Below, piece by piece: positions 16,574 through 58,408 of a DNA stretch of 64,000 nucleotides. Source of the DNA: Pecten maximus (taxonomy: Eukaryota); assembly GCF_902652985.1 (NCBI RefSeq), contig NC_047015.1:59892001-59956000 (forward strand). The letters run 5' to 3'. Numbering within the stretch: position 1 is the first letter of the stretch; each line of letters begins with the position of its first letter. Made by a program: the position numbers and the translations under genes. Under the pieces are notes generated by a model. The model did no database searches and was not told where the DNA came from. It saw only the letters and a list, made by a program, of their open reading frames with translations.

Positions 16574-16819
16574 CTAGTCCTCATTACTTTCAGTGCGTGC
16601 ACTGAGTGCCAACGTTACGCGCCTCATGGCGGGCTGTACGTGGGGGAACTCCTGGTTCAGTCGGTCCACTATAGCACTTAGAGCCTGCATACGATCGACC
16701 TGTTTGGTACTCTCATTCTCCAGAGAAGATTCTGACTTGCACAACATGGTGTATTTTCCATCCTTGGCCTGTTGGAAGTATTTTGTTTTCTGTTGTTTCT
16801 CTAGAATTTCTGTCATGTT
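16574..16819 (-). CDS. CCDC40: CCDC40 last coding exon
   Basis: DGKY...QEFPH, TAG stop; AATAAA on the minus strand at 16203-16208. Confidence 0.9.
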   Translation of the reverse strand, partial: NMTEILEKQQKTKYFQQAKDGKYTMLCKSESSLENESTKQVDRMQALSAIVDRLNQEFPHVQPAMRRVTLALSARTESNED

Positions 16820-19800
16820 CTGTAACATAGACAAATAGGTATGTGAAATAAATGTTTACAACTTGATAAAGTCAATATCCTCCCAAAAACCAAGGATTCC
16901 AACATGGACTGTCACAAAATTGTAATTTGGAGATGGAAATCCCATCAATAAAATTGTGTTTTTAATTGAAGAAAGCTGTTGTAATTATATGCGTGTACTG
17001 GTCAGTAAGATATCTTACTATTAACTATGTATTTGTTATGATCTAAGGGCAGATAACTCTAATTCCGGAAATTTGTATTGTTTTTCATTTCATTTTATTA
17101 GTATGTACCTAATTCCGGAAAATATGAACTGGATATCGATGATGTTTTTTTATTTTTTAGTTGTGAGAGAGATGGAATAAAACGATGGAAGGCAGACGAT
17201 TTTTCCGAGTGAACTTTTTGAATTAAAAACCTCACACAGCCAAGGAAGCCCCTCTAACATAACATTGTTTAACTAGAACTGTCGCCAGGATGGTTGACTA
17301 ATACCCCCGCAATCTGCACGAGTCAATGGTGAATTGGAAATGTTAATTAGAGGCTACCTAAGATAACCCAGTAAAACCTGTTTATAGTGACCAGTTGCCA
17401 TAGCAACCATAATTTTGTAAAAAATAAAGTGGCATGAAGTTTCATTGAAATTGGCCCTTCGGTTTAGGAGGAGTTGTCCGGACAAATTTAAAGTTATGGT
17501 TCTTATCAGAAAACCTGTTTATAGTGACCAGTTGCCATAGAAACCATAATTTTGAAAGAAAAGAAAGTGGTATGCACATCTACACATGGTCCTCTATATT
17601 TGTGTGAAGTTTCATTGAAATCGCCATTTAGTTTAGGAGGAGTTGTCCGGACAAACTTCAAGTTATGGTTCTTATCAGAAAACCTGTTTATAGCGACCAG
17701 TTGCCAAAGCAACCATAATTTTGAAAGAAAAGAAAGTGGTATGCACATCTACACATGCTCCTCTATATTTGTGTGAAGTTTCATTGAAATTGGCCTTTTG
17801 GTTTAGGAGGAGTTGTCCGGACAAACTTAAAGTGATGGTTCTTATAAGAAAACCTGTTTATAGTGACCAGTTGCCATAGCAACCCATAATTTTGAAAGAA
17901 AAGAAGTGGCATGCACATCTACACATGGTCCTCTATATTTGTGTGAAGTTTCATTGAAATTGGCCATTTAGTTTAGGAGGAGTTGTCCGGACAAACTTCA
18001 AGTTATGGTTCTTATCAGAAAACCTGTTTATAGTGACCAGTTGCCAAAGCAACCATAATTTTGAAAGAAAAGAAAGTGGTATGCACATCTACACATGGTC
18101 CTCTATATTTGTGTGAAATTTCATTGAAATTGGCCTTTTGGTTTAGGAGGAGTTGTCCGGACAAACTTAAAGTGATGGTTCTTATCAGAAAACCTGTTTA
18201 TAGTGACCAGTTGCCATAGCAACCCATAATTTTGAAAGAAAAGAAGTGGCATGCACATCTACACATGGTCCTCTATATTTGTGTGAAGTTTCATTGAAAT
18301 TGGCCATTTAGTTTAGGAGGAGTTGTCCGGACAAACTTAAAGTTATGGTTCTTATCGGAAAACCTGTTTATAGTGACCAGTTGCCATAGCAACGATAATT
18401 TTGAGAAAAATAAAGTGGCATGCACATCTACACATGATCATTAATATTTGTGTGAAGTTTCATCGGAATTGACCCATCGGTTTAGGAGGAGTTGTGCGGA
18501 CAAAATGCGTCTACAGACAGACGGACGTACGGACGGACAGACAACCTGATTCCAGTATACCCCCCCTAACTTCGTTGCGAGGGTATAATAACACTGACCT
18601 TCTGCTTGACCTCAAGGAGTCCCTCAATATCACCATCCAGGGTGTCAGAGCTACCCTGGAGTTGTTGGACATTGACTTGGTTCTGTTCTAACTGACTGCT
18701 CAACTCCAACTGGTGGTCACGTAACTCCTGTATCTCACTATCACAGGAATTAGCCTCCTGGAAAAACAAAAATATCACAGGAATTAGTCTCCTGGAAAAA
18801 CAAAAATATCACAGGAATTAGCCAAAAATTCAAGATGGCGGCCTGTTGGCCATGTTGTTTTCCGATCCGCCCTACAATGTAATATGCACAACTAAGGACG
18901 ACATCTGAAATTTGAGAAAGATCGCTTCTGAAAAATAGCTGTAACCCATTTCAATTGTCAAAATCCAAGATGGCCGCTTGACATTGATAAGAAATGAATT
19001 ATCTGTCAAAATACATTTATAAGCAGCAGTGCTATGAAACACTGTATCAAACCAAACATCATATTTATAACTAACACTAACAGTGCTATCACAGAACCAA
19101 TCACCATACATTTATAACTAACAGTGCTATCACAGAACCAATCACCATACATTTATAACTAACAGTGCTATCACAGAACCAATCACCATACATTTATAAC
19201 TAACAGTGCTATCACAGAACCAATCACCATACATTTATAACTAACAGTGCTATCACAGAACCAATCACCATACATTTATAACTAACAGTGCTATCACAGA
19301 ACCAATCACCATACATTTATAACTAACAGTGCTTTCACAGAGCCAATCACCATACATTTATAACTAACAGTGCTATCACAGAACCAATCACCATACATTT
19401 ATAACTAACAGTGCTATCACAGAACCAATCACCATACATTTATAACTAACAGTGCTATTATTACAGAACCAATCACCATACATTTATAACTAACAGTGCT
19501 ATTATTACAGAACCAATCACCATACATTTATAACTAACAGTGCTATCACAGAACCAATCACCATACATTTATAACTAACAGTGCTATCACAGAACCAATC
19601 ACCATACATTTATAACTAACAGTGCTATTATTACAGAACCAATCACCATACATTTATAACTAACAGTGCTATTATTACAGAACCAATCACCATACATTTA
19701 TAACTAACAGTGCTATTATTACAGAACCAATCACCATACATTTATAACTAACAGTGCTATTATTACAGAACCAATCACCATACATTTATAACTAACAGTG

Positions 19801-22800
19801 CTATCACAGAACCAATCACCATACATTTATAACTAACAGTGCTATCACAGAACCAATCACCATACATTTATAACTAACAGTGCTATCACAGAACCAATCA
19901 CCATACATTTATAACTAACAGTGCTATCACAGAACCAATCACCATACATTTATAACTAACAGTGCTATCACAGAACCAATCACCATACATTTATAACTAA
20001 CAGTGCTATCACAGAACCAATCACCATACATTTATAACTAACAGTGCTATTATTACAGAACCAATCACCATACATTTATAACTAACAGTGCTATCACAGA
20101 ACCAATCACCATACATTTATAACTAACAGTGCTATCACAGAACCAATCACCATACATTTATAACTAACAGTGCTATTATCACAGAACCAATCACCATACA
20201 TTTATAACTAACAGTGCTATTAGACACTCTTTCTAACAAAATATTATTACATAATACTTTTATCCACCTTTTTCAGTGATATAAAAACATGATAATATAA
20301 ACACATATATACCTGAATCGTATGTTTTATTTTCTTTCTCAGTTCAGCCATCTGTCGTTCAAATGTTCCCTTTGTAAGGACATTCTTATTTGTTTTCTGT
20401 TGGGCGTCTCCACGGGTGACAATCGTGTCTCTCCTGTTAAACACAATATTTATAGACTTCAGTCAATTTTAACATCAATAAGTCTTACTGTAAATGTGGA
20501 TATTTATGCTAATTACGTCCTTTTGATCGCGATAATTCCCTCTACACGTATTATATTGATATCAATTTGCATTATCTCAAACTACCAATGAAGGTGGATT
20601 GTTTCGAAAATTACCCCCACACATATAGTTTATAATCATATAAAAATCGTGAAATTGACCCCCTGCGAAAATATCCACATTTACAGTATTAAGAAAAAAT
20701 AAAATATTCAAAGTACATGTATATAATTATCTAATGAGTCTCATACAGTGAAGACATGGATACATAACTAGGTAATAGTTACATAACCAGGTAATAGTTA
20801 CATAACCAAGTAATAGTTACATAACCAGGTAATAGTTACATAACCAGGTATTAGTTACATAACCAGGTAATAGTTACACAACCAGGTAATAGTTACACAA
20901 CCAGGTATTAGTTACATAACCAGGTAATAGTTACATAACCAGGCAATAGTTACATAACCAGGTAATAGTTACATAACCAGGTAATAGTTACATAACGAGG
21001 TAATAGTTACACAACCAGGTAATAGTTACATAACCAGGTAATAGTTACATAACCAGGTATTAGTTACATAACCAGGTAATAGTTACATAACCAGGTATTA
21101 GTTACATAACCAGGTAATAGTTACACAACCAGGTAATAGTTACACAACCAGGTATTAGTTACATAACCAGGTAATAGTTACATAACCAGGCAATAGTTAC
21201 ATAACCAGGTAATAGTTACATAACCAGGTAATAGTTACATAACTAGGTAATAGTTACACAACCAGGTAATAGTTACATAACCAGGTAATAGTTACACAAC
21301 CAGGTAATAGTTACATAACCAGGTAATAGTTACACAACCAGGTAATAGTTACATAACCAGGTAATAGTTACACAACCAGGTATTAGTTACACAACCAGGT
21401 ATTAGTTACATAACCAGGTAATAGTTACATAACCAGGTAATAGTTACACAACCAGGTAATAGTTACATAACCAGGTAAAAGTTACATAACCAGCTCTAGG
21501 TCAAGGTCACACAGACCTGGGTAGTTCACCTTTTTTGGAGCTCTGACAAAAAAACTATTTTCATCGATTTATTGGAAACTGCGTATGATCTTTTTTGGCA
21601 TAATAATGTGCGAGTGAACCGTCACCATCCTCGTAAAAATATCTCTGGATCTTTTTTTCTAAAAATGTTGATTTTGGACATGTGAAATTTGAACAATGGA
21701 TTGACACCCAGCTGGTGAACACTGTTAACCAACACTACACTATTAATTACCTAGATTTACCTGGACTACACTGACTATATTCACTTTATGAACTGTATTA
21801 TCTACTATACAAAGGAGTAAATATGCCTACCGGCAATCGTCATAGAAATGGAAGTACAAAGTCAGGATCGGAAAAAACCATTGATGACAGACTAGAGGAA
21901 ATAACTGAAATGCTGTCCAATGTAGTTACTAAGCAGTACATGGAGGAAAGATACAACAAGCTAAAGGAAGCTATCAGAGCAGAGAACAAACAACTGGTAG
22001 AGGAGCTGAAAGGAAGGGTCTTTGATCTTGAGACAGAAAATGAAAATTTACGCCAGACTGTTAGCAGTCTTGAGGGAAAAGTTGCTGAACTGCAAAATTC
22101 GAATGAAATCATGGAGGCGAGGAGTAATGATTTAGAGCAGCATGGGAGGAAAAACTCACTCAGAATAAATGGCCTGGAAGACTCATCAGACTCGGAAACT
22201 GCTGAAGACTGTGCTAAGAAAATTGTAAAGTTTGTGAATGAAAAACTTGATGTGCAGCTTACCAGTTCTGACATTGACATTGCTCACAGACTAGGAAAAT
22301 TTAACAAAGACAGACCCAGAAATATCATTGTGAAATTTGTGCGCCGTTTCAAACGAAACGAAGTGATAAAATCCCGGTACAAGTTGAAAAAATCTGGTAT
22401 TACTATTTTCGAGGATCTCACAAGGACCAATCAAAGGATACTGGCGGATGCTTACAAACTTCCCTGTGTCAAAAACTCTTTTAGTATCGACGGAAAGCTT
22501 TTTGCCATACTATCAAATGGAAAAAAGAGGAGACTTTCACTGGGTACTCGGCTCACCGAAAGTTTTTTGAAGAATGATTCCAACTTCCAGTAGACTTAAT
22601 TTTAATGGATAATATATCGGTATGGAACTTTGGCACCACGGTGCCGCCAGGAATTAATTCCTCCTGGTTAATACCGATAACTTTTGACAGTGTTTGGAAT
22701 TTAATTGGTAATATAATGTGTACGCGTGTATATGTGTGTCTTTTCTTAGTGTGTGGCATGTTTTCCATGTGATTACGGGACATACATTTCTGTAACACCA

Positions 22801-25800
22801 GGTAAGATGTAGCTTTTTTGTATATGTAGCCTGTGATTTTTCCCCCCTTTATTTACTCAAAATTCTACGCACATTCCAATATGTGGAAATATACATCTAA
22901 AAGTGCATTAATCTCTTTGGAGTCTGTCCATTATATAATCAGTAACATCTGGCAGAACATACTTGCCCAGTTTTTTTGTTGTTTTTTTTGTACACTTCTT
23001 TCAAATACCAATGTTTCTCTTTTATTTATCCACTGTTTTTAGATATAAGATTTATTCAGTACATGCTCGAATTTCTTGCCAGTCTGTTTGACTACGTACA
23101 TGTACATACATTATACTGGTTGTTTGTGGCATAAGAGTAGCTACAATGTATATATTTTTCTGGTTTATATTCATCTAGGTCTATATCATACCTGCCAAGG
23201 GTCCAATATTGTCAAACTGGAGATCTCCAGTTTGAGGACTTTCCTCAAACTGGGGATTGTGCGCGACGACATTTTTACAGAACATGGTGCCTTCATCAAC
23301 AAAAAGCAACACAAATTAATTGATTAATATATTCACTTTAATTACACATGAATGCAACTGAGTAATTATAATGATTAGTGAATATCTACAGAATAGTTAA
23401 TGAAATTACTGGTCCTGGTGTTTCTTGGCGGATAGCATGGGCTTTCCCAAGCGGGTGAAAACTGGAGAATTTAATAAAATTCGGGACCCGCAAGGGTCAT
23501 TGATCTCAAACTGGAGATTTTGATTTCTGAACTGAATTTTCGGGAGTCTCCCGACCAATGCGGGAAACTTGGCAGGTATGCTATATTGTATATGTTTTAT
23601 CTAATTTTCAAGGAAAAAAAATCAGTATGGGTTGTATTTATTGTTCTTGTGCAAAATCCTGTCAAAGTTACAATGTACAACGGTGTTAAATAATCAGTGA
23701 CAGCTGTAGGGTTACCTACAACGTTAACACATTAAATATTGGTACTTTATATAAAATGCATACGATATCTCTTTTCCGGATTACACCAAGTCCGGAAATG
23801 TATTATACAACTTCCGGTAAGATAACTCTTGTCTGACAACAATATGGTGGTGTAGATGCTGTTTCAGAAAGAAAACGTGTGTAGTATGTTAGGTTGGCAG
23901 TGGTCTTTAGGTCGTTGACCTCACGTATGTATTTTATGTCTTTATACAGTCTATTTCTTTCTATCTACTCGCTATCTCTTTCTTTCTTTGTTCTCGGGAT
24001 GGGGACAGTTAATTTGATAGCTTTGTGTTTATACCGTAGATAGCATTTCGATTATATCAGCAAATTGTCGGGGCATTGGAGAAAAAACTAAACGAACTGA
24101 TATTTTTTCTTACTTTCGATCAATGCAATGCAATATTATATGTTTACAAGATACACACTTTACTGAAGAAAACGAAGGTATCATTAGAAATCAGTGGGGT
24201 TACCGATGCTTTTTCAGTTCTTACAAATCCAACTCGAGGGGTGTTGCCATTTTATTTAAAAATAATTTTGAATTTAAAATATTTAAAGAGAGAAGAGGAC
24301 CTAATGGTAATTTTATTGCACTAGCAATTGGCATTGAAAATTTTAACATAACACTCATTAACTTGTATGGTCCAAATGAAGATAACCCTGCATTTTATAA
24401 TCTTATATCTGAGACAGTTGAAGACTTTAACAATAAATATGTTATCATCTGTGGCGACTTTAACCTAGTCTTAGACCCCAGTTTAGACTATGATAATAGT
24501 TATAAGCATATCAATAATCCTAAAGCTAGGGACAAAGTTTTGGAAATTATTGATAATTTCTCTCTTATTAATATTTTTAGGGAACATCACGAGAATTTAA
24601 AAAGGTACTCCTGGAGGAGAAGTAACCCCAAAAAACAGGCCCGTCTAGACTTTTTTCTTCTGACTGAAAACCTACTTTCAAATACAGTAAAATCAAACAT
24701 AGAAACAGGATACAGATCAGACCACTCTTTCCCATCAATATCTCTTAAACTTACTGAATTCAAAATAGGTAAAGGTATTTGGAAATTTAATAACAGTTTA
24801 CTACATGATCAAAACTATCTAAAACTTGTTAAGGAATGTATTTTGGAATCTAAAAGAATAAACTGTCTGCCTTTATATAATCTTTTCAATATATCAAACA
24901 TACCAGATGCAGACCTTCAGTTTACTATTGATGATTCTCTCTTTCTAGAAACCTTATTGACACACATCAGAGGCAAAACAATTTCTTATTCAACCTTTCT
25001 CAAAAAACAACGAAATCTTAATGAGAATAATTTAAAAACAGCTATTCAAAAACTTGAAGAAGAAGATGATATTAATTTTGCACAATTAGAATGTAAAAAG
25101 AAAGAATTAGAAAAAATAAGACAACATAGAATTAAAGGCAGTATAGTAAGATCAAGAGCTAAATGGATTGAAGAGGGTGAGAAACCAACTAACTACTTTT
25201 TTAATTTGGAAAATAGAAATTTTACCTCGAAAATAATTCCTAAATTGCAATTAGATGATGGAAAAGTTATTACAAAGCAAGATGAAATCTTAGATGAAGT
25301 TCGCAGTTTTTATGAAAATCTTTATAATGATGAAAATGAAATAGAAGATGTTCACTTGCAAGATTTGTTAAAAGATTGTAATGTTTGTTAACTAAATAGA
25401 CAAGATGCTGAAAAGTTAGAAGGTCCTATAACTCTAGAAGAAGCAGGAAAAACATTAAAAAGCATGAAAAACAACAAGAGTCCTGGCATAGATGGTTTTA
25501 CAGCTGAGTTCTTTAAATGTTTTTGGAAATATTTGGGTAATTTTGTGGTAAGATCTATAAATTCAGGGTACATAAAAGGTGAACTATCTATTTCTCAACG
25601 TCGTGGAATTGTGACTTGCATACCAAAGGGAGACAAACCAAGGCATTTTATAAAAAACTGGAGACCAATTACATTACTCACTGTGATATATAAAATAGCA
25701 TCTGGAACAATTACACATAGAATAAAAACAGTTTTAGACAAAATTATAGATAAGGATCAGACAGGTTTTCTCGCTGGACGATATATTGGGGAAAATACAC

Positions 25801-28800
25801 GGTTAGTTTATGATTTAATGAAATATACAGAGGATAATAATATTCCAGGGATGCTGCTTATGATAGATTTCCAAAAAGCCTTTGATTCGGTCTCATGGGA
25901 GTTTATTGAAAAAGTATTAAAATTTTTTGGTTTTGGGGAAAACATACGAAATTGGATAAATGTATTTCACAAAAATGTCAGTGCCGCAATCATTCAGGGA
26001 GGAAACTTGTCTTCATTCTTCAATGTTAAAAGGGGATGCCGACAGGGTGACCCGATAGCCCCGTATATCTTTATCCTATGTGCAGAAATATTAGCTATCA
26101 TATTACGACATAATAAAAATATAACAGGCATTGAAGTCAATAGAAGTCCGATCCTACTCTCACAATATGCAGATGATACATCTTTGGCATTGAACGGCTC
26201 AGAGATATCTCTTAAAGAATCAGTTAATGAACTTAATTTATACGCTAAAATTTCTGGTCTTAAAATTAATGTTTCTAAAACACAGGTAATTTGGATAGGT
26301 AGTAAAAAGTTCAGTGACGATACTTTCCTACCAGATCTTAATTTGCAATGGGGCAAACACAAATTTACGCTATTGGGGATTGAATTTCATGTCAACCTAC
26401 ATGAGATACCAAAACTGAATTTCGATAAAAAACTAATTAAATTAAAGTCACTTCTTAAAACCTGGAAAAGAAGAGTTTTGACCCCTATCGGTAGAATCCA
26501 TATTATTAAATCGCTCCTCATTTCACAATTTAACCATCTCTTTATTTCACTCCCTAGTCCTAATGAACAGTTTACTTCAACACTAAATTCCATTCTTTTT
26601 ATATTTTTGTGGAATAGCAAAACAGATAAAGTAAAAAGAGAATTTATTGTTCAAGATTATCTAAATGGTGGTTTAAAAATGATAAATATAAAAGCTTTTA
26701 TAGATTCATTAAAATTATCTTGGGTGAGAAGGCTTTTTCAAACTACAGCCAAGTGGCAAGCTATTTTGAAAAGTTACATTAACATTGATTTGCTAGCCAA
26801 TTGTGGCAATGATTATGTGCAGAAATGTGCAAAAAGTTGCAGTAATATATTCTGGGCTGATGTGTTTAAAGCCTGGTACAATTTAAATCTATCAATCGAA
26901 AAAAATAGCATTATGAAAGATTCTATCCTAAAAACACCACTATGGTTTAATAAAGATATAACTGTTGGCCAGAAATCAGTATTTTTTAAGAATTTCTATA
27001 ACAAAAACATAATTATGATAAATGACTTGATATCAGATCATAATACTGGATGTTTTCACACTTTCCAAGAAGTAACTCGCACATATCAAGTAAAAACTAA
27101 TTTTCTTCAGTATCATAGCCTTTTGTCAGCAGTAAGAAATTTTTTTTCTTCAAAAGAAATTTCTGTATTAAAAATCCCATATCCTTGTTTGCCAATGAAC
27201 ATAGAATTATTCATGAAACACAGAAAAGGCTCAAAGGATTTCTATAATATTTTTATTAAAAATAACAATGTTCCTACAGGTAAAAAGAAGTGGAATGAAG
27301 TTTTTAACTTGAATGATACAACTTGGACTAGGATATTCAAGATTCCCTTTATTGCTACAAAAAATACCAAACTTCAGTGGTTTCAGTACAGAGTTAATCA
27401 TCACATCTTAACCACAAACTCTTTTCTTTTCAAATCACAGCTAGTAATTTCTCCTCTTTGTACTTTATGCAATTCTGAAATTGAAACTATCATACATATC
27501 TTGTGGGAATGTTGTTAAGTTCAGAACTTATTAGAAAGTCTTAGAATTTTATTAGATGCTCTTTTTATCCCATTTAATTTCAATAAGCAATCTTTTATTT
27601 TTGGACTACTATCTCAAAATCCTAATAACTGTAAAGTTGACAATGAAATTCTCCTTGTTATCAAACAATATATTTATAAAATGCGATGTTTTCACAAGTC
27701 TTTAAACATCAATGGTCTGATAAGTGCTCTTAAACAATATCATGAGACGCAAAAATTTATTGCATATAGTAAAGGAGAAGCCTGTAGGAAAAAGTTTGAA
27801 AAAGAGTGGAAAAACTGGGGGAAAATCTCCGACTTATAATAACCATATCTCTTTTTTTCTCCAGTGCTGTGTTGCTGATAATCATTAAATAAGCAGATAA
27901 TAATTACTTTCCATCTCCTATCAAGGTATATTATTTTAATTTTTTGTATTAAATGGTCCCATCCTTCTTTGTCTATCTTCTTTTGTCTATCCCCCCCCCC
28001 CCCCCCCCCCCCCCCCTGTTTTCCAATTGTGTGTGTGTGTGTGTGTAAGAGGTACCTATCAGTGTGGAGCGTGGTCAATCCTGCTGATGACTCGGTAGAC
28101 GTGGATAGAGTTGATATGACCAACACAGAAACTGAGCCCTCGATAGGATTGATCAGGCTACCAGGAAACTGAATATGTATGTGTGTGAGGGTGTATGTAT
28201 ATGTATGTCTATCAGAGTACATTCACATTTATAGGAGTTTGTATGGTTTCCTATGTACATGCATTTACCTTTGTAGTTAATGATGATGATATTATGAAGA
28301 TGATTAGAATGATGATTAATTATTATGATGAGTATGATGAGATTATGGTGATGATACTATGATGATGAGAGTATGTTGACTTGTATGATGATGTGATTAC
28401 GATGGTGATGATGAGTATGATGATGCGGATGAGGTTGCTTTTAAGACAATGAAAGATCTTGAGGTTATTCTGATCATGATGATATATAATGGCAAACCAT
28501 ACATTCTGGAACTGATGTGTGTATGTTTGAGGGTGTGTATGTGTGCATGAGGTTATTATCTATTCATGTATTAAAAATGTCTTCAAAAATTAAAAATTAA
28601 AAAAAAAAAAAAAAAAAAGTTACATAACCAGGTAATAGTTACACAACCAGGTAATAGTTACATAACTAGGTAATAGTTACACAACCAGGTAATAGTTACA
28701 CAACCAGGTAATAGTTACATAACTAGGTAATAGTTACACAACCAGGTAATAGTTACACAACCAGGTAATAGTTACATAACTAGGTAATAGTTACATAACC

Positions 28801-31800
28801 AGGTAATAGTTACATAACCAGGTAATAGTTACATAACCAGGTAATAGTTACATAACCAGGCAATAGTTACATAACCAGGTAATAGTTACATAACCAGGTA
28901 ATAGTTACACAACCAGGTAATAGTTACACAACCAGGTAATAGTTACATAACCAGGTAATAGTTACACAACCAGGCAATAGTTACACAACCAGGCAATAGT
29001 TACATAACCAGGTAATAGTTACATAACCAGGCAATAGTTACACAACCAGGTAATAGTTACACAACCAGGTAATAGTTACACAACCAGGTAATAGTTACAT
29101 AACTAGGTAATAGTTACATAACCAGGTAATAGTTACACAACCAGGTATTAGTTACATAACTAGGTAATAATTACACAACCAGGCAATAGTTACACAACCA
29201 GGTATTAGTTACATAACTAGGTAATAGTTACATAACTAGGTAATAGTTACACAACCAGATAATAGTTACATAACCAGGTAATAGTTACACAACCAGGTAA
29301 TAGTTACACAACCAGGTATTAGTTACACAACCAGGTATTAGTTACATAACCAGGTAATAGTTACACAACCAGGTATTAGTTACATAACTAGGTAATAGTT
29401 ACACAACCAGGTAATAGTTACACAACCAGGCAATAGTTACACAACCAGGTATTAGTTACATAACCAGGTCATAGTTACATAACTAGGTCATAGTTTCATA
29501 ACTAGGTAATAGTTACATAACCAGGTAATAGTTATACAACCAGGTAATAGTTACATAACCAGGTAATAGTTACACAACCAGGTAATAGTTACACAACCAG
29601 GCAATAGTTACATAACCAGGTAATAGTTACACAACCAGGTATTAGTTACACAACCAGGTATTAGTTACATAACTAGGTAATAGTTACACAACCAGGTAAT
29701 AGTTACATAACCAAGTAATAATTACATAACCAGGTAATAGTTACACAACCAGGTATTAGTTACATAACTAGGTAATAGTTACACAACCAGGTAATAGTTA
29801 CATAACCAGGTAATAGTTACATAACTAGGTAATAGTTACACAACCAGGTAATAGTTACATAACCAGGTAATAGTTACACAACCAGGTATTAGTTACATAA
29901 CTAGGTAATAGTTACACAACCAGGTAATAGTTACATAACCGGGTTATAGTTACACAACCAGGTAATAGTTACATAACTAGGTAATAGTTACACAACCAGG
30001 TAATAGAAACACAACCAGATAATAGTTACACAACCAGGTAATAGTTACACAACCAGGTAATAGTTATACAACAGGTAATAGATGTGTGCAAAAGCCACAT
30101 AAAGGAGCAAGTCAGCTCATATGACATACTTATTGAAAGTGGAGTCAAAAGGAACACAACAGAGTAAACTGTCACCATCAAACACAACATTACCGTGACA
30201 CTGTCACCATCAAACACAACATTACCGTGACACTGTCACCATCGAACACAACATTACAGTGACAATGTCACCATCAAACACAACATTACCGTGACACTGT
30301 CACCATCAAACACAACATTACCGTGCCACTGTCACCATCAAACACAACATTACCGTGCCACTGTCACCATCGAACACAACATTACCGTGACACTGTCACC
30401 ATCAAACACAACATTACCGTGACACTGTCACCATCAAACACAACATTACCGTGACACTGTCACCATCGAACACAACATTACCGTGACACTGTCACCATCG
30501 AACACAACATTACAGTGACACTGTCACCATCGAACACAACATTACCGTGCCACTGTCACCATCAAACACAACATGACAGTGACAATGTCACCATCAAACA
30601 CAACATTACCGTGACACTGCCTTTTCCATCTCCTGGATCATTTTCTCTTGCTGTTTCATTAGTTGTGTGTGGCGTACTGTCATACGATGTATCTCTGCAT
30701 TCATGGCCTTAATCTCACCCTGACCCACCTCGGAGTCCACTGCTGCTCGCGTCTCGCGTGCCAGCTGGGTTTTCTTCTCCCAAAGCATTATCTGGCGTCT
30801 ATAGTGGAATCATATACATAATAATCAATCATTAACAGGGGCAAACATAACTAATATCCACTCAGCCATTCTGGACAAGTAGCATTTGATAAAAGCTTGT
30901 TATTTACTTAAGATTAAAGCTTAGGACAATTAGTTATAATTAGTTATAATACGCAGGAAGTTACATCAAAAGTATTTTAATGAGTACATGCAAATAATGA
31001 ATTAATCTATCATAGCACTCAAAAATGTGGATATTATAGATTGGATTGAAAACTATGTAAAATGCAGGATATTCTAGGTTTGATTTCCTCTGTAAAACTT
31101 GAGGAACCATCTTACTCCATAGTTACCGCATCGTGGTTTGTTTATACAAAAAAAGGACGGATCAGTCTGACTTAGACAGGTGATAGATTCTGCACCATGG
31201 TATAAACTTTAGACCAATTAGCTAATAGAATATTAATATAGATCGAATTATACGTACTCTGCCTCTACAAGACTGTTGAGAAGTCTCTCTTTCTCCTCCT
31301 TGATGGAGTCTAAATTGGCTTGTTTCTCAATGGATTCTAGTTCAGCTTCCTGTAACACAAATTGTAACGTGAGGACATGTCAGTGTCACAGCTGTGACTG
31401 TCCAAACATGTGACAGTTGGTTACTTCAGTAAAAATCATGAAATATAGACTTGGAATAACATAAAACTAACAACCCCATATAAAAGATGGCTGACACTCT
31501 GAGTGAGTGAGCTATCGCAGGCTTACTGCTGGATAAATACAGTATAGTTGATTGAGTGAGCTATCGCGGGCTTACTGCTGGATAAATACAGTATAGTAGA
31601 TTGAGTGAGCTATCGCGGGCTTACTGCTGGATAAATACAGTATAGTTGATTGAGTGAGCTATCGCGGGCTTACTGCTGGATAAATACAGTATAGTTGATT
31701 GAGTGAGCTATCGCGGGCTTACTGCTGGATAAATACAGTATAGTTGATTGAGTGAGCTATCGTGGGCTTACTGCTGGATAAATACAGTATAGTTGATTGA

Positions 31801-34800
31801 GTGAGCTATCGCGGGCTTACTGCTGGATAAATACAGTATAGTTGATTGTGTGGCAGACTTGTCCTACCTTGAGTGCTCTGATGAAGTCCTGTTCCAGCAG
31901 GATATTATCTTGTTGTAGATTTGTCTGAATATTGGTTTCCTTGTGAAGATGTTGATTCAGTTTAATCATGTCATTTTGCATGTTGGTGATGTTACGTTCA
32001 ATATCGTACGTCTCTCGTCTCTCCTCGTCTATGTTTCCTGTGCAAGAAAAAGCAAGTAATTGTAAAATAAATAATTCATCTAACCAGCAGTTATAAATAA
32101 GTTTGTTTTGAACTTGATTTATTGGAGGACATTAAGATCTTTCAGTTTCTGCTCAGCAAATTTATCCAGCTAGTTTACATTTCTAAAAAAACAACATGTC
32201 TAAAAGATCCATTAGTGTCGGCACAAGTTGAGGTCACATGAATAGATCATAAGTTGAGGTCACATGAATAGATCACAAGTTGAGGTCACATGAATAAATC
32301 ACAAGTTGAGGCATGAAATATTATGTTATATATCTGAAACAAAACAGATACGAGGTTTGCAAACTTCTTTCATTGTTTAAAAAAAAGAATATTTTTGATT
32401 AAGCAAATCTTGCCTTGTGTACGAATCTTTTTCTGTGACAGGATTGTCAGTTGTTTCTTCAATTTCTCGACAGATTCTGATTGGCTGTCCTTTTCCTTGG
32501 CAAGGTGAACTAATTCTGTCTGTTGTCGCAGCCAAAGCTGTTGTAGTTCTGCGATCTCTTGGAGGCGAGCTTCAATAGACTTCTGTAGTGAATTGATGTT
32601 GATTTCCAGTGGCCCGAGCTCGACACCCTAAAGCAGAGACAAGAAAATTAATGTAACAGCTGATCAAGGGAAACACAAAACAGGCACAACCTAATTAATG
32701 TAACAGCTCATCAAGGGAAACACAAAACAGGCACAACCTAATTAATGTAACAGCTGATCACAGGGAACACAAAACAGGCACAACCTAATTAATGTAACAG
32801 CTGATCAAGGGAAACACAAAACAGGCACAACCTAATTAATGTAACAGCTGATCAAGGGAAACACATCCTAAAACAGGCACAACCTAATTAATGTAACAGC
32901 TGATCAAGGGAAACACATCCTAAAACAGGCACAACCTAATTAATGTAACAGCTGATCACAGGGAACACAAAACAGGCACAACCTAATTAATGTAACAGCT
33001 GATCACAGGGAACACAAAACAGGCACAACCTAATTAATGTAACAGCTGATCACGGGGAACACAAAACAGGCACAACCTAATTAATGTAACAGCTCATCAA
33101 GGGAAACACAAAACAGTCACAACTTAATTAATGTAACAGCTGATCATCCAGGAAGACGGTAGATGTTTACAATATCTTATTAACATCAACCTGTAACATT
33201 TGTGGCTAATCAACTCTGATACATGTACATATCTCCATCAGGGGCTGACATCTCATTTGAGGCAAAGAAGATAAGATTTTATAAATGGAATATCAGTGTG
33301 AGACTAACATATTCTTCGTGTGTGATTGCCCTCCACCAGTCCTGACTTACCCCAGCAATACTGATGAGTACCACCAGTCCTGACTTACCCCAGCATTACT
33401 GATGAGTACCACCAGTCCCGACCTACCCCAGCATTACTGATGAGTACCACCAGTCCGACTTACCCCAGCATTACTGATGAGTACCACCAGTCCCGACTTA
33501 CCCCAGCATTACTGATGAGTACCACCAGTCCCGACTTACCCCAGCATTACTGATGAGTACCACCAGTCCCGACTTACCCCAGCATTACTGATGAGTACCA
33601 CCAGTCCCGACTTACCCCAGCATTACTGATGAGTACCACCAGTCCCGACTTACCCCAGCATTACTGATGAGTACCACCAGTCCCGACTTACCCCAGCATT
33701 ACTGATGAGTACCACCAGTCCCGACTTACCCCAGCATTACTGATGAGTACCACCAGTCCAGACTTACCCCAGCATTACTGATGAGTACCACCAGTCCCGA
33801 CTTACCCCAGCATTACTGATGAGTACCACCAGTCCCGACTTACCTCAGCATTACTGATGAGTACCACCAGTCCAGACTTACCCCAGCATTAGTGATGAGC
33901 ACCTCCAGCTTTTTGTTGTATTGGTCGATAATATTCTGTTTCCTTTCAATGATAGCATTTCGTTTGACAATCTCTGCCTCACTTCGGTTGATGATGTCAT
34001 TTTTAGCACTGACTTCTTCGTCCAAACCTCTCATAATTTTGTCGAGCCTTTCGACCCTTGTTTGTACATTGGAGATTTCTAATGTTTCTGATGAGATGGT
34101 ATTCTCCACCTCAGCCATTTGTGTCTCCTACAACAGAACAGGAACATGTTAATACAGAAGCTGCAATGTTCTCAGTTGATAGCTATCAAAGCCGTCCTAT
34201 GTCGCCTGTTATATGATACAGGGGAGATAACTCATTCCTAATTCAGCCAAGGGAGATAACTCATTCCTAATTTAGCCAGGGGAGATAACTCATTTCCTAA
34301 TTCAGCCAAGGTTGGTTAGTTAAATCAATGTATTTCTTACAGTGTTACAATCAATTTTGTCAAAAGTGTATAAGGTCGTGCGAGTTATCTCCCTTCCCGA
34401 GATTATAAGCGGTATTACCTGTACAGGTACAGGTAGTCACGACAATGCGAGGCTCGCTGTTTCAGTAAGGACGTGTTTCTAATTGTGTGCGTTTTGTGGT
34501 TGCCCCAACCTCCCACCCTTTTGGCTTTGGAGAAAATAGACTATTTTATGATTATGTTCATTGGCTTAATCGGGTAGTGATGAGGTTTGATCACACAGAT
34601 CCTGGTTTTTCCTGGGCGGCGGCATTACCTGTGATAGAGGGTACCCGTCCAGTATTTACAGTTAGAGTAAAAGTCCTTACTTCATGTTATAGTACATCAA
34701 CAGTTTATATCAGTGGTAAGGTTGTATTAATCGTATCAGTAAATCTTTTGTGAAATTATGTCATTATCCTGCAAATGAAAAACATGAGCCACACATCCTA

Positions 34801-37800
34801 TATTCATGGTTTTCTTGTCTTTGATATAACTACGTAAGACAATATTTATTTTCAGACACACAGTATGGAGGGAGAAAAGCCACTTACAAGCTGTTTGGTG
34901 AGTTCGCGTTTTTTAGAGGTGAGTTTACGAGTATACTGTGAAGCTTTGTCCATAGTCAACTGACTTCTCATCTTCTCCATAATGGCGTCTTCCAGCTGCA
35001 CCTTCTCCAAATATTCTCGCTCAATCTGCTTCCTCAGGGCATTGAGCTCGTTCATCCTGAGTGTCTTATCCTACAAAATAGGCAACAAAATCTGATAAAC
35101 TAGGCAACACAATCTATATATCTACACCTGTCTCATAAACTAGACAACACAATCTATATATCTACACCTGTCTCATAAACTAGACAACACAATCTATATA
35201 TCTACACCTGTCTCATAAACTAGACAACACAATCTATATATCTACACCTGTCTCATAAACTAGACAACACAATCTATATATCTACACCTGTCTCATAAAC
35301 TAGACAACACAATCTATATATCTACACCTGTCTCATAAACTAGACAACACAATCTATATATCTACACCTGTCTCATAAACTAGGCAACACAATCTATATA
35401 TCTACACCTGTCTCATAAACTAGACAACACAATCTATATATCTACACCTGTCTCATAAACTAAGCAACACAATCTATATATCTACACCTGTCTCATAAAC
35501 TAGACACAATCTATATATCTACACCTGTCTCATAAACTAGACAACACAATCTATATATCTACACCTGTCTCATAAACTAGGCAACACAATCTATATATCT
35601 ACACCTGTCTCATAAACTAGGCAACACAATCTATATATCTACACCTGTCTCATAAACTAGACAACACAATCTATATATCTACACCTGTCTCATAAACTAG
35701 ACACAATCTATATATCTACACCTGTCTCATAAACTAGGCAACACAATCTATATATCTACACCTGTCTCATAAACTAGACAACACAATCTATATATCTACA
35801 CCTGTCTCATAAACTAGACAACACAATCTATATATCTACACCTGTCTCATAAACTAGACAACACAATCTATATATCTACACCTGTCTCATAAACTAGACA
35901 ACACAATCTATATATCTACACCTGTCTCATAAACTAGACAACACAATCTATATATCTACACCTGTCTCATAAACTAGACATCACAATATATATATCTACA
36001 CCTGTCTCATAAACTAGACAACACAATCTATATATCTACACCTGTCTCATAAACTAGACAACACAATCTATATATGTACACCTGTCTCATAAACTAGACA
36101 ACACAATCTATATATCTACACCTGTCTCATAAACTAGGCAACACAATCTATATATCTACACCTGTCTCATAAACTAGACAACACAATCTATATATCTACA
36201 CCTGTCTCATAAACTAGACAACACAATCTATATATCTACACCTGTCTCATAAACTAGACAACACAATCTATATATGTACACCTGTCTCATAAACTAGACA
36301 ACACAATCTATATATCTACACCTGTCTCATAAACTAGGCAACACAATCTATATATCTACACCTGTCTCATAAACTAGACAACACAATCTATATATCTACA
36401 CCTGTCTCATAAACTAGACCACACAATCTATATATCTACACCTGTCTCATAAACTAAGCAACACAATCTATATATCTACACCTGTCTCATAAACTAGACC
36501 ACACAATCTATATATCTACACCTGTCTCATAAACTAGACAACACAATCTATATATCTACACCTGTCTCATAAACTAGGCAACACAATCTATATATCTACA
36601 CCTGTCTCATAAACTAGACAACACAATCTATATATCTACACCTGTCTCATAAACTAGGCAACACAATCTATATATCTACACCTGTCTCATAAACTAGGCA
36701 ACACAATCTATATATCTACACCTGTCTCATAAACTAGACACAATCTATATATCTACACCTGTCTCAGGAAGCATACACATTTTAGTAGTAGTCTCTACTG
36801 GTATTCACACTGATAAACTATATATCTACACCTGTCTCAGGAAGCATACACATTTTAGTAGTAGTCTCTACTGGTATTCACACTGATAGAGTCTTTGAGT
36901 AGTATTTTGTATGACAAGGATTGTCATCATTATGCAAAAAATCCTGTTTGTATTTTACTTCGAAAAAAAAAAATCACAATTATAATATCCAGTTTTGGAG
37001 TAAGAAGCCAAGAAATTCAGATTGTAGAAGTAAGTAAAGAGTTTACCTACCGTAACTGCACGGTTGAGTGCCTGCTCAGTCTCGTGTAACATCCGTGTGT
37101 ATGTAGCATACTCAGCCTTTAAAGCATCATGTTTGGCCTGGGATTGACTCAACAGCTTTCTCACGGTCTCGATGTCCCGCTCAGTCTTATTTAATATCAG
37201 AGTTAGTTTCTCATTCTGCTCCTGTTCCTTGAAAATAGACTTTTTATATCCTTCAATTTCAGTTTCGAGGGATAAAACTTTCTGCTGTTGTTGTCTGAAA
37301 TAAAGACAGTGTCATGAAAACAAACAAATCTTACTAGAGATGGCCATACGTCAACATCTACAGGGTTTTACTAGAGATGGCCATACGTCAACATCTACAG
37401 GGTTTTACTAGAGATGGCCATACGTCAACATCTACAGGGTTTTACTAGAGATGGCCGTACGTCAACATCTACTGGGTTTTACTAGAGATGGCCGTACGTC
37501 AACATCTACAGGGTTTTACTAGAGATGGCCGTACGTCAACATCTACAGGGTTTTACTAGAGATGGCCGTACGTCAACATCTACAGGGTTTTACTAGAGAT
37601 GGCCGTACGTCAACATCTACAGGGTTTTACTAGAGATGGCCGTACGTCAACATCTACAGGGTTTTACTAGAGATGGCCGTACGTCAACATCTACAGGGTT
37701 TTACTAGAGATGGCCATACGTCAACATCTACAGGGTTTTACTAGAGATGGCCATACGTCAACATCTACAGGGTTTTACTAGAGATGGCCATACGTCAACA

Positions 37801-40800
37801 TCTACAGGGTTTTACTAGAGATGGCCATACGTCAACATCTACAGGGTTTTACTAGAGATGGCCATACGTCAACATCTACAGGGTTTTACTAGAGATGGCC
37901 ATACGTCAACATCTACAGGGTTTTGGAGAAGTGTAATTTTGAGTACAAGGTGCTCTTGGAGGACAACATTTACATTCTGGTGCCATCAACTCTGTGATGT
38001 TTCAGACCATATGTTAAAAGCCCTTCATCTCCACGAGAGTAGAGTCACTATACAGGTCCAGACAACTGCCATCACAGTAGGGTTTTAAAAAGGAAATGTA
38101 GATAGATGGAAGGTTACATCAGGGGAAGTTGGAGAATCCTTCCCCACCAGTACTTCTCAAGAAATGGTGACAACAAGGAATGATTACAGATGGACCCTCT
38201 GATGATGGTGGGCTAATAAAAGGTGGCAGGAAAAGTTTAGTTTTGGAAAGATTGGCATGAAATAAAACAATTGACCATTATGAGAGTATTATAGTGATAG
38301 AATATTACAGTAATAGAAATTTAAACATTCATCAAACTATCAATGTAATATTATGAAGCCAATATACAAATAAATCAAAATTATCAGCTGTCATTAGTGA
38401 CTCTTTGTTCTTACTCTAAAGCTTCCTGCATGGCAGAATGAGCTTCATCTCTCCTCCTCATCCCGATCAGCGAGCTGTTCCACTGCTGAAACAGCTGTTT
38501 CTTCTCGAGACCAATTGCCTGTCAACATAACCAAATATTTGTTTACATGACGAAGGGAAAGCTGATTCTTGTATTGGATGTCAATTGATCTACATCTGAT
38601 CACATCCATTTAACATTGAGTTGTACTCTACGAGAGTGATAAAACATGCCAGTGTGCTGTCATGTCCCCTAATATCAGCCAATCAGATTTGTCAGACTTT
38701 TCTGTCAGGCTGTGCTAGAGTGTAATATGACGTTTTATCAAAGATGCAGTATTTATGACGTTTTGGTGAATATCAAGGAAATAAGACGCAGTATTTATGA
38801 CGTTTTGGTGAATATTAAGGAAATAAGACGCAGTATTTATGATGTCATGGTGAATATTAAGGAAATAAGACACAGTATTTATGATGTCATGGTGAATATT
38901 AAGGAAATAACATGCAGTATTTATGGAGTTTTGGTGAATATTAAGGAAATAAGATGCAGTATTTATGATGTCATGGTGAATATTAAGGAAATAAGACGCA
39001 GTATTTATGACGTTACGTTGAATATTAAGGAAATAAGACGCAGTATTTATGACGTTACGTTGAATATTAAGGAAATAAGACGCAGTATTTATGACGTCAT
39101 GGTGAATATGAAGGTAATAAGATACAATATTTATGACGTTTTGGTGAATATTAAGGAAATAAGACGCAGTATTTATGACGTTTTGGTGAATATTAAGGTA
39201 ATAAGACACAGTATTTATGACGTTTTGGTGAATATTAAGGTAATAAGATGCAGTATTTATGACGTTTTGGTGAATATTAAGGAAATAAGATGCAGTATTT
39301 ATGACGTTACGGTGAATATTAAGGTTATAAGATGCAGTATTTATGACGTTACGTTGAATATTAAGGAAATAAGACGCAGTATTTATGACGTCATGGTGAA
39401 TATGAAGGTAATAAGATACAATATTTATGACGTTTTGGTGAATATTAAGGAAATAAGACGCAGTATTTATGACGTTACGGTGAATATTAAGGTAATAAGA
39501 CACAGTATTTATGACGTTTTGGTGAATATTAAGGTAATAAGATGCAGTATTTATGACGTTATGGTGAATATTGAGGAAATAAGACGCAGTATTTATGACG
39601 TTTTGGTGAATATTAAGGAAATAAGATGCAGTATTTATGACGTTACGGTGAATATTAAGGTAATAAGATGCAGTATTTATGACGTTATGGTGAATATTGA
39701 GGAAATAAGACGCAGTATTTATGACGTTTTGGTGAATATTAAGGAAATAAGATGCAGTATTTATGACGTTACGGTGAATATTAAGGTTATAAGATGCAGT
39801 ATTTATGACGTTACGTTGAATATTAAGGAAATAAGACGCAGTATTTATGACGTCATGGTGAATATGAAGGTAATAAGATACAATATTTATGACGTTTTGG
39901 TGAATATTAAGGAAATAAGACGCAGTATTTATGACGTTTTGGTGAATATTAAGGTAATAAGACACAGTATTTATGACGTTTTGGTGAATATTAAGGTAAT
40001 AAGATGCAGTATTTATGACGTTACGTTGAATATTAAGGAAATAAGACGCAGTATTTATGACGTCATGGTGAATATGAAGGTAATAAGATACAATATTTAT
40101 GACGTTTTGGTGAATATTAAGGAAATAAGACGCAGTATTTATGAGGTTACGGTGAATATTAAGGTAATAAGATGCAGTATTTATGACGTTACGGTGAATA
40201 TTAAGGTAATAAGATGCAGTATTTATGACGTTATGGTGAATATTAAGGAAATAAGACACAGTATTTATGACGTTTTGGTGAATATTAAGGAAATAAGATG
40301 CAGTATTTATGATGTTACGGTGAATATTAAGGTTATAAGACGCAGTATTTATGATGTTTCGGTTGATATTAAGGTAATAAGATGCAGTTTAAATGGAATG
40401 GGATCATGCCTTAATACTCTGTGCTCTTGTTTTGATACAGAAATAAAACAGTTACGACACTATATTTCTATCAATATCAGGATATATGGAGCTCAGATTA
40501 CCAATATCAAACTTGGTCTCCGGACTCCGCCATTATTGGTTATCCTCGCTCCCTAAATCATCACACCAATAGAAAAACGTCTATAAAATGTCTTGTATTG
40601 ATAATTCTCACACAGTACAACACTGACTGATGTTTTTGGGGATAATAACCTCGATCTCCATGTGAGCTTCAGTGAGAGCCTCTTTGGCGGCTAATGTCTC
40701 CTCAGTTTGTGCCGTGATCTGTGCCTCGTACATGGCAATCTCCTCTTTCAACTTGTCGACTCTTTCCACGAGACGATCCACAAATAAATCCTACAAACAC

Positions 40801-55729: not shown

Positions 55730-58408
55730 TTAGTTTAAACATATTTTATTGTATCAAATATATACAATAGGATTGGGCACAAGTTTTCCAACTTATATCA
55801 AGCCCTTTCCATACAATATTATATAACACATACAAAATATACAAGATGACATTAACAATAAAATAATTATTTAGTGTGGGAGTGTGGATAAGGGAAGGGT
55901 AAGGATGGGGTGTAAGAAGGTGCAAGTATGTGAAAAGAATGTGACAATCTCCATTTTAATTCTTTTATGAAATAATTTAGACATTTCCACTAGTAATTGA
56001 AACATCTTTTTTTTAAGACTGCGTGAATGATTTTTCTCGACCCAGATGGCACAAGTACACAATCCACTACTCGTAACTTTCGGCTTTTCAATGTTCATCA
56101 TATCCCCTGCCACGGTTTTCTTTCGCTTTGGTCTTTCCTTTCCTTCTGATATTTCCGTTTCCCAAGTGCCATATGAGTCGAGAAAGATAAAAGACGCAGA
56201 CTTTGATAGAGTTAAAGGGGTTAAACAATTTACATATATATATATGATTTTTTTCTTTTTCCCTTTTTCAAAAACACAATATATCAAATATATTAAGTAC
56301 TGAAGAGAGATATGTTGAAAAAAAAAATTAAAAAAAATGGGGAGACTTGCACGAATGGAGTGATAGAGAGAGGTAGGTGGTAGAGAAAGTACAAATGTAA
56401 AATCAAAATCTATTTGTATCGTGAATATATTTCTGAGTGTGCAGAAATATTTTTTCGTTGTCTGCTTTGGATAATTCATGACTGCCATGTAGAATAAGCT
56501 GTAGGTCCAGTGGGATGAAATCATTTAACTCACGGTACCACTTTATTCTCTGATCTATGTACTTGTTGCAAATAAAAAAGAAGTGAAATGCATTTTCAAT
56601 AGAATGTCCACAATGACAAATTTGAAAATCAATTAAGTTAGCATGAAATAAGTCGTCGTTTAGAGTACTTGAATTAGTTCTTAATCTAGCATGCAAAATA
56701 TTAGATTTTCTGTCACCAAACAAATAATAAGAGGGGATATTTATGTCATTAAGCTTACGAAGAGAGTTTTTAAAAGCTGGGGCTGACCTACTCTGTCTTA
56801 TGCCAGGGTCTAAATTATTCCAAAGTCGAATAGTAGACGGGAAAAAAGAACTATTAGAAAGTTGAAGTCTGAAGTTAGGTAAGGAGTAATGATTTGCATT
56901 ACGGAGGTTATATTCTACATTTTGTGACACTAAAGGAGGTAGTAAAGCTGAAAGATAATTCGGCGTGAGGTTAGCTTGAATTTTGAAAAAAAGTTGTAGT
57001 TTTCTGTTCTTTCTTCTATTTACTAGTGGTTCGAGTCCACTTTCTGAATATAATGAAACCCTACTTGCATAAGATGGTAAACCTGTTATAATACGGATAG
57101 ACTCTAACTGTAGTTTTTCTAGATTGTCTGCGTCACCGAGGGTACATCCGTCCCAAACTTCACAACAATATTCTAGTAAAGGAAGAATATATGCTCTGTA
57201 AATTTTGTCTAAAGTTCGTCTATTTAACAAATACTTCAGTTTTCGTAAAACACTTACCTGTTTTGACACATTTTTACAAATATTTTCTATATGCATACTC
57301 CATTTACAATTTTCACTTAATACTACTCCAAGGTGCTTATGATTTTCTACAAAGTCTACATTTACATTATTAAACCTAATTTCAATTGCATATTCAAGTT
57401 CAAAGTTGGAAACAAGTAATGCCTCTGTTTTAGAAGGGTTGAAATTTACTAACCACTTACTAGCCCAGTGTTTAATTTTATCTAAATCGTTATTTATTTT
57501 TCTTTCAATAGTTTGAGGAGATGTATCACAGTATAATAAGGAGGTATCATCTGCGAATAATTTACAAAGACTTTCCAGGTTATCAGCTATGTCATTAATA
57601 TATAGAATGAATAAAAGAGGGCCTAATACAGAACCTTGAGGAACTCCGGCATTGGTAGATTTAACCAAAGACTTCGTATTTCCCACAAAGACTTGTTGTT
57701 GTCTATCACTAATATAATTTTTGAACCACGCTAACAATTTTCCGGAAATGCCATAATTTGCTAGTTTAACTTCCAATCCCCTGTGCCATACACGGTCGAA
57801 CGCCTTTGAAATATCACAAAAAACTATACATGAAGGACGTTTTTTTTCTAAGTTTTCGCATAAAGTGTGATATAATTCAATCATTTGATGTACTGTCGAA
57901 TGACCTGGCTGGAAACCAGACTGATATTTATATATTAATGAATGATCTAATAAATAGTTGTGCAAATATTTCACTACCAATCTTTCAAAAACTTTACCAA
58001 CAGTGCTTAATAGTGAAATAGGTCTATAATTTGAAACTACCTGTTTATCCCCCTTTTTGAATATAGGCATTACTAATGCTTTTTTCCATTGTTTGGGAAA
58101 GATACCAGTTTCTAAAGAAGATCTAAAGATAAGAGAAAGAGGAAGAGCTACTGATAGTGCTGTGTTTTTTAACATATGATGACTTATGGTATCAATACCT
58201 ACAGCTTTACTAATATTTAACGATTTAAGGATGTCGATAATGTCGTTCAAATTGAAAGGTATGTCAGATAGAGTAGCGTCCGTCCTAAGTTGTACAACAG
58301 GCACGTCGGTATTGGAATCGTCGATAGTAGAAATGGAAGCAAAGTAATCATTTAAAGTGTTAGCTTTACCGTCTTCTGTAATTTCGATTTGACCAAATTC
58401 ATTCATTC
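55730..58408 (-). mobile_element. 5'-truncated CR1/L2-group LINE with an uninterrupted RT frame (58406-56403)
   Basis: Motifs NYRPISLL, QSGF, PQGSVLGP and LFADD. 3' tail AATAAAatatgtttaaactaaa. 11-bp TSD atacaatctgt at 55719-55729 and 58409-58419. Confidence 0.9.

Follow-up and report, generated by a model that had tools for sequence, protein, structure and literature searches.

Host gene and exon structure

The features described here lie in CCDC40 of the great scallop, Pecten maximus, which is encoded on the minus strand of the window (the 64,000-nt stretch of DNA analyzed, to which all positions refer). We mapped the CCDC40 exons by tblastn and obtained a 21-exon model that runs from an ATG exon at 52796 to a stop at 16574 and encodes 1,131 aa without internal stops. 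All 1,131 residues are identical to XP_033757277.1, a Pecten maximus CCDC40-like protein in which RefSeq adds 13 N-terminal residues. The frame is intact, full length, and homologous to CCDC40/FAP172. This match identifies the host gene as great scallop CCDC40 and the exon considered below as coding exon 14; it also indicates that the annotated protein uses the first of the donors found there. CCDC40 is one of two 96-nm ruler proteins in motile cilia, according to the available text of PMC9559825.

Coding exon 14 (33882 to 34127, minus strand) comprises 246 nt, or 82 codons, in phase 0/0. Its translation matches solved CCDC40 chains in the PDB (phmmer, best E value of 5.9e-13), as well as scallop CCDC40 proteins at 89 to 95%. 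An intron of 1,254 nt separates it from coding exon 15 (32414 to 32627, minus strand; 214 nt), whose acceptor is joined to the first donor. Two features of neighboring coding exons were observed along the way. The donor of exon 15 reads AAG/GCAAG (32413 to 32406, minus strand), a GC-AG intron that the RefSeq-matching model requires. In exon 4 (48351 to 48447, minus strand), an in-frame 42-bp coding repeat lies in the low-complexity N terminus and accounts for about 14 extra residues relative to Argopecten.

A minisatellite spans the exon 14 donor

Tandem Repeats Finder delimits an array at 33333 to 33908 with a 38-bp period, 15.2 copies, 97% matches, and a score of 1075. Read on the minus strand, it comprises one true donor, whose last exon base is 33882, and 14 decoys (last bases at 33844, 33806, and so on down to 33351), the number arrived at by an earlier sequence-only reading, which had described about 14 decoy donors built from the end of exon 14 and its 5' splice site. 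The array starts 26 to 27 nt within exon 14. Its first unit, unit 0 (33871 to 33908, minus strand), therefore covers the authentic exon-intron boundary, with 27 nt of exon, 11 nt of intron, and the donor GGG/GTAAGT; this donor is backed by homology, the RefSeq protein, and RNA contigs. Unit 1, the first decoy (33833 to 33870, minus strand), carries GAG/GTAAGT with its last base at 33844 and contains a TAA at 33842 to 33840. Units 2 to 14 (33340 to 33832, minus strand) supply 13 further decoys, 12 with GGG/GTAAGT and one with GGG/GTAGGT. A GT in donor context is thus kept in all 14 decoy units and the true 9-mer is unchanged in 12 of them; the claim that nearly every copy repeats the real donor holds, the exceptions being decoy 1 and decoy 12 (GGG/GTAGGT).

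Eight of the 14 decoy units are identical (unit 2 and units 4 to 10, the latter seven being consecutive), and the variant units (1, 3, and 11 to 14, of which unit 11 has 37 nt) lie mostly at the far end. The array therefore has the homogenized core and divergent end units that are a feature of junction-spanning minisatellites. It closes with a CTGGTGG tail (33333 to 33339, minus strand) that shares six of seven positions with the CTGGAGG at its head (33908 to 33902). The decoys open with the intron form, CTGGTGG, and the exon side of the array has CTGGAGG, an arrangement that would be expected if the founding duplication broke within the CTGG-GG microhomology, which is likely to have been its breakpoint. 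No 14-mer of the 38-bp unit was found elsewhere in the 64-kb window, which gives no local support to the unit having come from a dispersed or mobile sequence. The exon encodes ITNAG (33892), and the decoy units encode ISNAG instead. The same residue is S in Argopecten and Ylistrum and T in Mizuhopecten and Mytilus, and the decoy units may preserve an older exon 14 codon, with S instead of T.

Consequences of decoy use and strength of the donors

We computed the outcome of splicing from each donor. Use of decoy 1 would add 38 nt, shift the frame, and meet a TAG in exon 15 (32512 to 32510; nt 116 to 118 of the exon), for a product of 786 aa. Decoys 2 to 14 would all run into the TAA at 33842 to 33840, which is in frame with exon 14, for a product of 748 aa; this codon also stops those decoys that add a multiple of three. 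The computation bears out the sequence-only reading on the frameshift caused by the first decoy, on the TAA included by later ones, and on the most upstream donor being the only productive one: each of the 14 decoys yields a premature stop, with at least six junctions further downstream. A premature stop in that position is expected to trigger nonsense-mediated decay (NMD). Skipping of exon 14, on the other hand, would keep the frame and shorten the protein by 82 aa (1,049 of 1,131 aa), whereas skipping of exon 15 would shift the frame.

Decoy 1 is the likeliest competitor of the true donor, and it differs from it in a way that was overlooked in the sequence-only reading, since it sits closer to consensus. 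It meets eight of the nine positions of MAG/guragu (the donor consensus as given in the accessible part of PMC1557585), compared with seven for the true donor, and its computed U1 duplex is slightly better (-10.7 versus -10.3 kcal/mol). The A at position -2 of decoy 1 is read only from the assembled window. Opening energies are 2.7 to 4.6 kcal/mol for the decoys and 3.2 to 3.8 kcal/mol for the true site, with no consistent difference between them over five window sizes. These like energies rule out RNA structure as the means of silencing the decoys. The z-score of -2.2 obtained for 33700 to 33960 is not informative, because shuffling destroys the repeat.

First-donor use in the main RNA contigs

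We found 24 RNA runs, all of them as assembled contigs. Part of the stretch is present in 20 runs, and the share represented (0.22 to 0.29) is near its exon fraction. Four runs from four study codes were compared with positions 33832 to 34215 only, that is, exon 14 and the first decoy. Two of these, X7 and X15, give almost the same figures and may represent a single data set, which leaves probably three independent runs. In all four, a main contig (2,409 to 3,790 nt, depth of 82 to 128) covers 33881 to 34127, and its loose ends match exactly the end of exon 13 and nt 2 to 31 of exon 15; the extra base at 33881 is a G common to the intron and exon 15. These exact matches identify the main contigs as spliced RNAs that use the first donor. 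The authentic, most upstream donor thus predominates in mRNA in four of four runs, where the contigs show predominance and exclusive use lies beyond them. First-donor choice, which the sequence-only reading had offered as one of two options, is therefore what the RNA displays, with 33882 joined to exon 15 in every run. F7 minigenes behave likewise in the available part of PMC1557585. Since folding does not hide the decoys and the dominant RNA uses the first donor, position appears to be the deciding feature.

No loose end at decoy 1 and no decoy junction was seen in any of the four runs, in contigs that drop rare forms. Contigs show presence rather than absence: a substantial decoy 1 path could be hidden in them, NMD would deplete it further, and the lack of cover at 33832 to 33844 is no evidence of absence.

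Short contigs were also recovered over 33846 to 33908, namely, one of 68 nt in X1 (depth of 15.9) and one of 67 nt in X7 and X15 (depth of 2.45); X2 has none. We identified them by their lengths and differences, not by their letters. The 68-nt contig has four mismatches, as predicted for a tandem of the consensus 38-nt unit (its length being one unit plus 30), and the 67-nt contig has three mismatches and a gap at 33874, as predicted for a tandem of the 37-nt variant. We read both as the collapsed array, derived from unspliced RNA or DNA. They bear on the possibility that a single junction, or a few copies, was inflated by the assembler. The copy number of 15 does come from one assembly, in which units 4 to 10 are identical. 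Yet the units carry copy-specific variants, and contigs from independent runs cross a unit-to-unit boundary with exactly the predicted differences, which argues against an artifact and makes it extremely unlikely.

Comparison with known junction-spanning minisatellites

The array is a junction-spanning minisatellite of the F7 intron 7 type, termed a "mirage" in amphioxus, and every structural feature of the class that we tested is present. It was treated as unusual in the sequence-only reading, but the class has been described before in human genes and in amphioxus. In the accessible part of Borensztajn et al. 2006 (PMC1557585), minisatellites whose first unit spans a donor are listed for F7, CBS, IFI6 (6-16), LMNB2, and PDGF. 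The scallop array resembles the 37-bp variable-number tandem repeat (VNTR) of human F7 intron 7 in its near-equal unit, a first unit lying over the boundary, a reiterated donor, and use of the most upstream donor. It differs in having 14 decoys (4 to 8 in F7), 27 nt of exon per unit (4 nt in F7), a much stronger donor (GGG/GTAAGT compared with TGG/GTGGGT), a first decoy that matches the consensus better than the true donor, and a mollusc as host. In F7 minigenes, pseudo-sites become active in order once the upstream site is lost (PMC1557585). The scallop array is known here from one haplotype, and its RNA contigs show predominant use of the first donor.

Other members of the class share single traits with it. 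Those of CBS intron 13 (15 to 20 units), IFI6/6-16 intron 2 (25 pseudo-sites), LMNB2, and PDGFA also reiterate a donor at a similar copy number, as described in the same source (PMC1557585). As in the 25-bp VNTR of ABCA7 intron 18, the array starts at a donor, and splicing from the first decoy keeps one unit in the RNA and shifts the frame. In ABCA7 such splicing triggers NMD, whereas in the scallop NMD is an expectation; the ABCA7 unit starts with the GT and is free of exon sequence (De Roeck et al. 2018, PMC5954066, in the text available), whereas the scallop unit carries 27 nt of it. The amphioxus mirages (Adh3 and the globins BflGb6 and BflGb9), on both donor and acceptor sides, leave splicing undisturbed according to the available text of PMC3087553; the scallop case differs from them in its bivalve host, its three arrays in one gene, and a copy number exceeding that of the globins (3 to 6 in BflGb6). 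Associations between repeats and splicing are common in humans (PMC10078293, as far as its available text goes). We do not assign the scallop array to the splicing-regulatory VNTRs (ABCA7 type; the spl-TR of PMC10078293), in which array length alters splicing or expression. In the open-access literature, searched by titles and abstract openings and with few subscription papers covered, no fitting report of a scallop or mollusc junction array appeared. Nor did the literature search suggest a report of a CCDC40 junction VNTR, and it yielded no UPF3A example of a junction array.

The sequence-only reading also proposed that copy number could tune CCDC40 output, with more decoys leading to more unproductive splicing and NMD and hence to less CCDC40. 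That all 14 decoys give premature stops with at least six downstream junctions would suit such a rheostat, as would the fact that the decoys are all good donors, no less accessible than the true site; moreover, a CBS paper cited in PMC1557585 ties, in its title, a 31-bp junction VNTR to reduced activity. Yet no distal decoy junctions were seen in the contigs of the four runs, in which rare forms are invisible. Depth over the unit loop was 15.9 against 128 for the main contig in X1 and 2.45 against 82 in X7 and X15, which roughly limits the steady-state molecules running through whole units to about 12% and 3%, respectively, unspliced ones included and depth being a poor measure. The precedents point the same way. 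F7 minigenes with 1 to 6 or 8 to 12 monomers were spliced identically, copy number having no effect on donor choice, and known cases use the nearest one or two pseudo-sites at most: CBS and IFI6 splice from the two nearest in addition to the authentic donor, and LMNB2 and PDGFA from the authentic donor only (all from the part of PMC1557585 available). The first decoy of ABCA7 has a usage of about 2% that is independent of VNTR size, and it is an NMD target, according to the accessible text of PMC5954066. We therefore regard a copy-number rheostat as very unlikely, and tuning of CCDC40 output by copy number, as put forward in the sequence-only reading, remains an unlikely proposition.

A second alternative dispenses with donor counting. 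Decoy 1 might take a sizeable share of splicing to NMD whatever the copy number, or array length might drive skipping of exon 14 or 15 as in ABCA7. The consensus match and U1 duplex of decoy 1 are consistent with the former, as are perfect-consensus pseudo-sites in F7, which competed and won about 70 to 90% of splicing (PMC1557585, available part); for the latter, ABCA7 exon 19 skipping rises with VNTR length (PMC5954066), expression being affected too (PMC6660495, both in the text available), and the frame survives loss of exon 14 in the scallop. On the other side, the duplex advantage of decoy 1 amounts to just 0.4 kcal/mol, its A at -2 comes from the window sequence, and a G-to-A change at -2 alone did not make F7 pseudo-sites competitive, though in a weaker background (PMC1557585, same part). 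The near-consensus sequence of decoy 1 falls between the F7 sites that did and those that did not compete. A loose end at decoy 1 occurs in none of the four runs, and exon 14 is included in the main contigs. We consider this alternative improbable.

Homologous junctions and other arrays of CCDC40

A metagenome scan returned 30 homologous loci, none from a scallop. Nine of them were dropped: six have no intron here (spliced or intronless), one is truncated, one is a spurious partial match, and one extends only 21 nt downstream. The remaining 21 informative loci overlap in part (about 15 distinct junctions), reach 72% identity at most, and are probably short-read assemblies, which can collapse arrays; all have a GT at the same phase-0 position in a single-copy junction. 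This agreement indicates that the intron position is old and the array lineage specific. A single-copy junction, which the sequence-only reading had suggested looking for in orthologues, is present in all of these homologous loci, with no scallop among them.

Tandem arrays make up 13,710 of the 32,827 intron bases of CCDC40 (42%) and occur in 13 of its 20 introns. Two further arrays span a junction. The second (30168 to 30619, minus strand) repeats 32 bp across the exon 18 donor (30610) and has 13 decoys, of which decoys 1, 3, and 11 are weakened (ACT/GT), the first reading ACT/GTCATG and the third ACT/GTAATG; its first decoy is thus weakened, the opposite of the exon 14 array. Each of the six decoys that we checked would lead to a stop, with a product of 957 aa. 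The third (18739 to 18823, minus strand) repeats 34 bp across the exon 20 acceptor (18757) and has one full decoy acceptor (18791), 34 nt upstream, whose use would truncate the protein at 1,010 aa. To gauge these numbers, we used a crude, post hoc null model in which 21 non-exonic arrays are seeded uniformly on the collapsed introns and junctions. It predicts 1.18 junction-spanning arrays of 21, compared with 3 observed (probability of at least one, 0.71; of at least three, 0.10, or 0.059 once the 170-bp array is dropped). Under this model, one junction array is expected in CCDC40, and three represent a mild, nonsignificant excess.

Several other arrays end 15 to 46 nt short of an exon boundary (31500 to 31852, 32646 to 33146, 35091 to 36766, 37331 to 37924, and 42220 to 44566), and some introns are nearly all array, such as intron 8 (2,347 of 2,462 nt). 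Longer satellites lie at 58637 to 60940 (157 bp, 14.7 copies) and 17435 to 18504 (170 bp, 6.3 copies).

Origin and significance of the array

Beyond what is directly observed of its anatomy, of the frame consequences of its decoys, and of first-donor use by the dominant spliced RNA, the array is probably a tolerated by-product of a minisatellite seeded across the exon 14 donor, and any leak would be small and fall on the nearest decoy. The 38 bp would have been duplicated through slippage or repair between the CTGG-GG microhomologies flanking the junction, and unequal exchange would then have expanded and homogenized the copies, as presumably happened in the other intronic arrays of CCDC40. 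Its tolerance would follow from the spliceosome choosing, among donors that lie close together, the one furthest upstream, which here is the authentic donor of unit 0. In the accessible part of PMC1557585, this first-donor rule is demonstrated in mammalian cells, not in molluscs. By analogy with the human precedents, NMD would remove whatever leaks, and the leak would be small, restricted to one or two of the nearest decoys, and independent of copy number. No selected function is needed for the array. Several points run against a by-product, namely, that three junction arrays exceed the expectation, that decoy 1 is near consensus and its use could be hidden in contigs, that CBS and IFI6 do use pseudo-sites, and that the ABCA7 VNTR affects expression and skipping of an adjacent exon.

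As a tolerated by-product, the array modestly extends the known class to bivalves and suggests that they, too, follow the first-donor rule. Its practical use would be as a test system, with strong donors and a first decoy that beats the authentic one, in a gene that has two other junction arrays. Any effect on CCDC40 output, if there is one, should be visible in the cilia of the gill, in larvae, or in sperm. It is quite improbable that the strengthened first decoy, by diverting a large share to NMD, or array length, through exon 14 skipping, measurably lowers or shortens CCDC40. The former would break the first-donor rule, and the latter would cost the 96-nm ruler protein 82 residues in the cilia and sperm of the scallop. 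In either case, a hypermutable repeat would set ciliary function heritably in a mollusc that is farmed, and CCDC40, which has two donor arrays (the first decoy strengthened in one and weakened in the other) besides an acceptor array, would serve as a natural experiment on how 5' splice sites are scanned in a non-mammal.

Two other elements were observed in the window. Intron 18 contains an insert antisense to CCDC40 (21775 to 27515, plus strand), with a 272-codon frame followed by frames of 456 and 708 codons split by one stop; judging by its motifs, it is a putative insert like a non-LTR retrotransposon, its frames presumably resembling an endonuclease and a reverse transcriptase. Upstream of CCDC40, a 667-codon open frame (56406 to 58406, minus strand) presumably resembles a reverse transcriptase.
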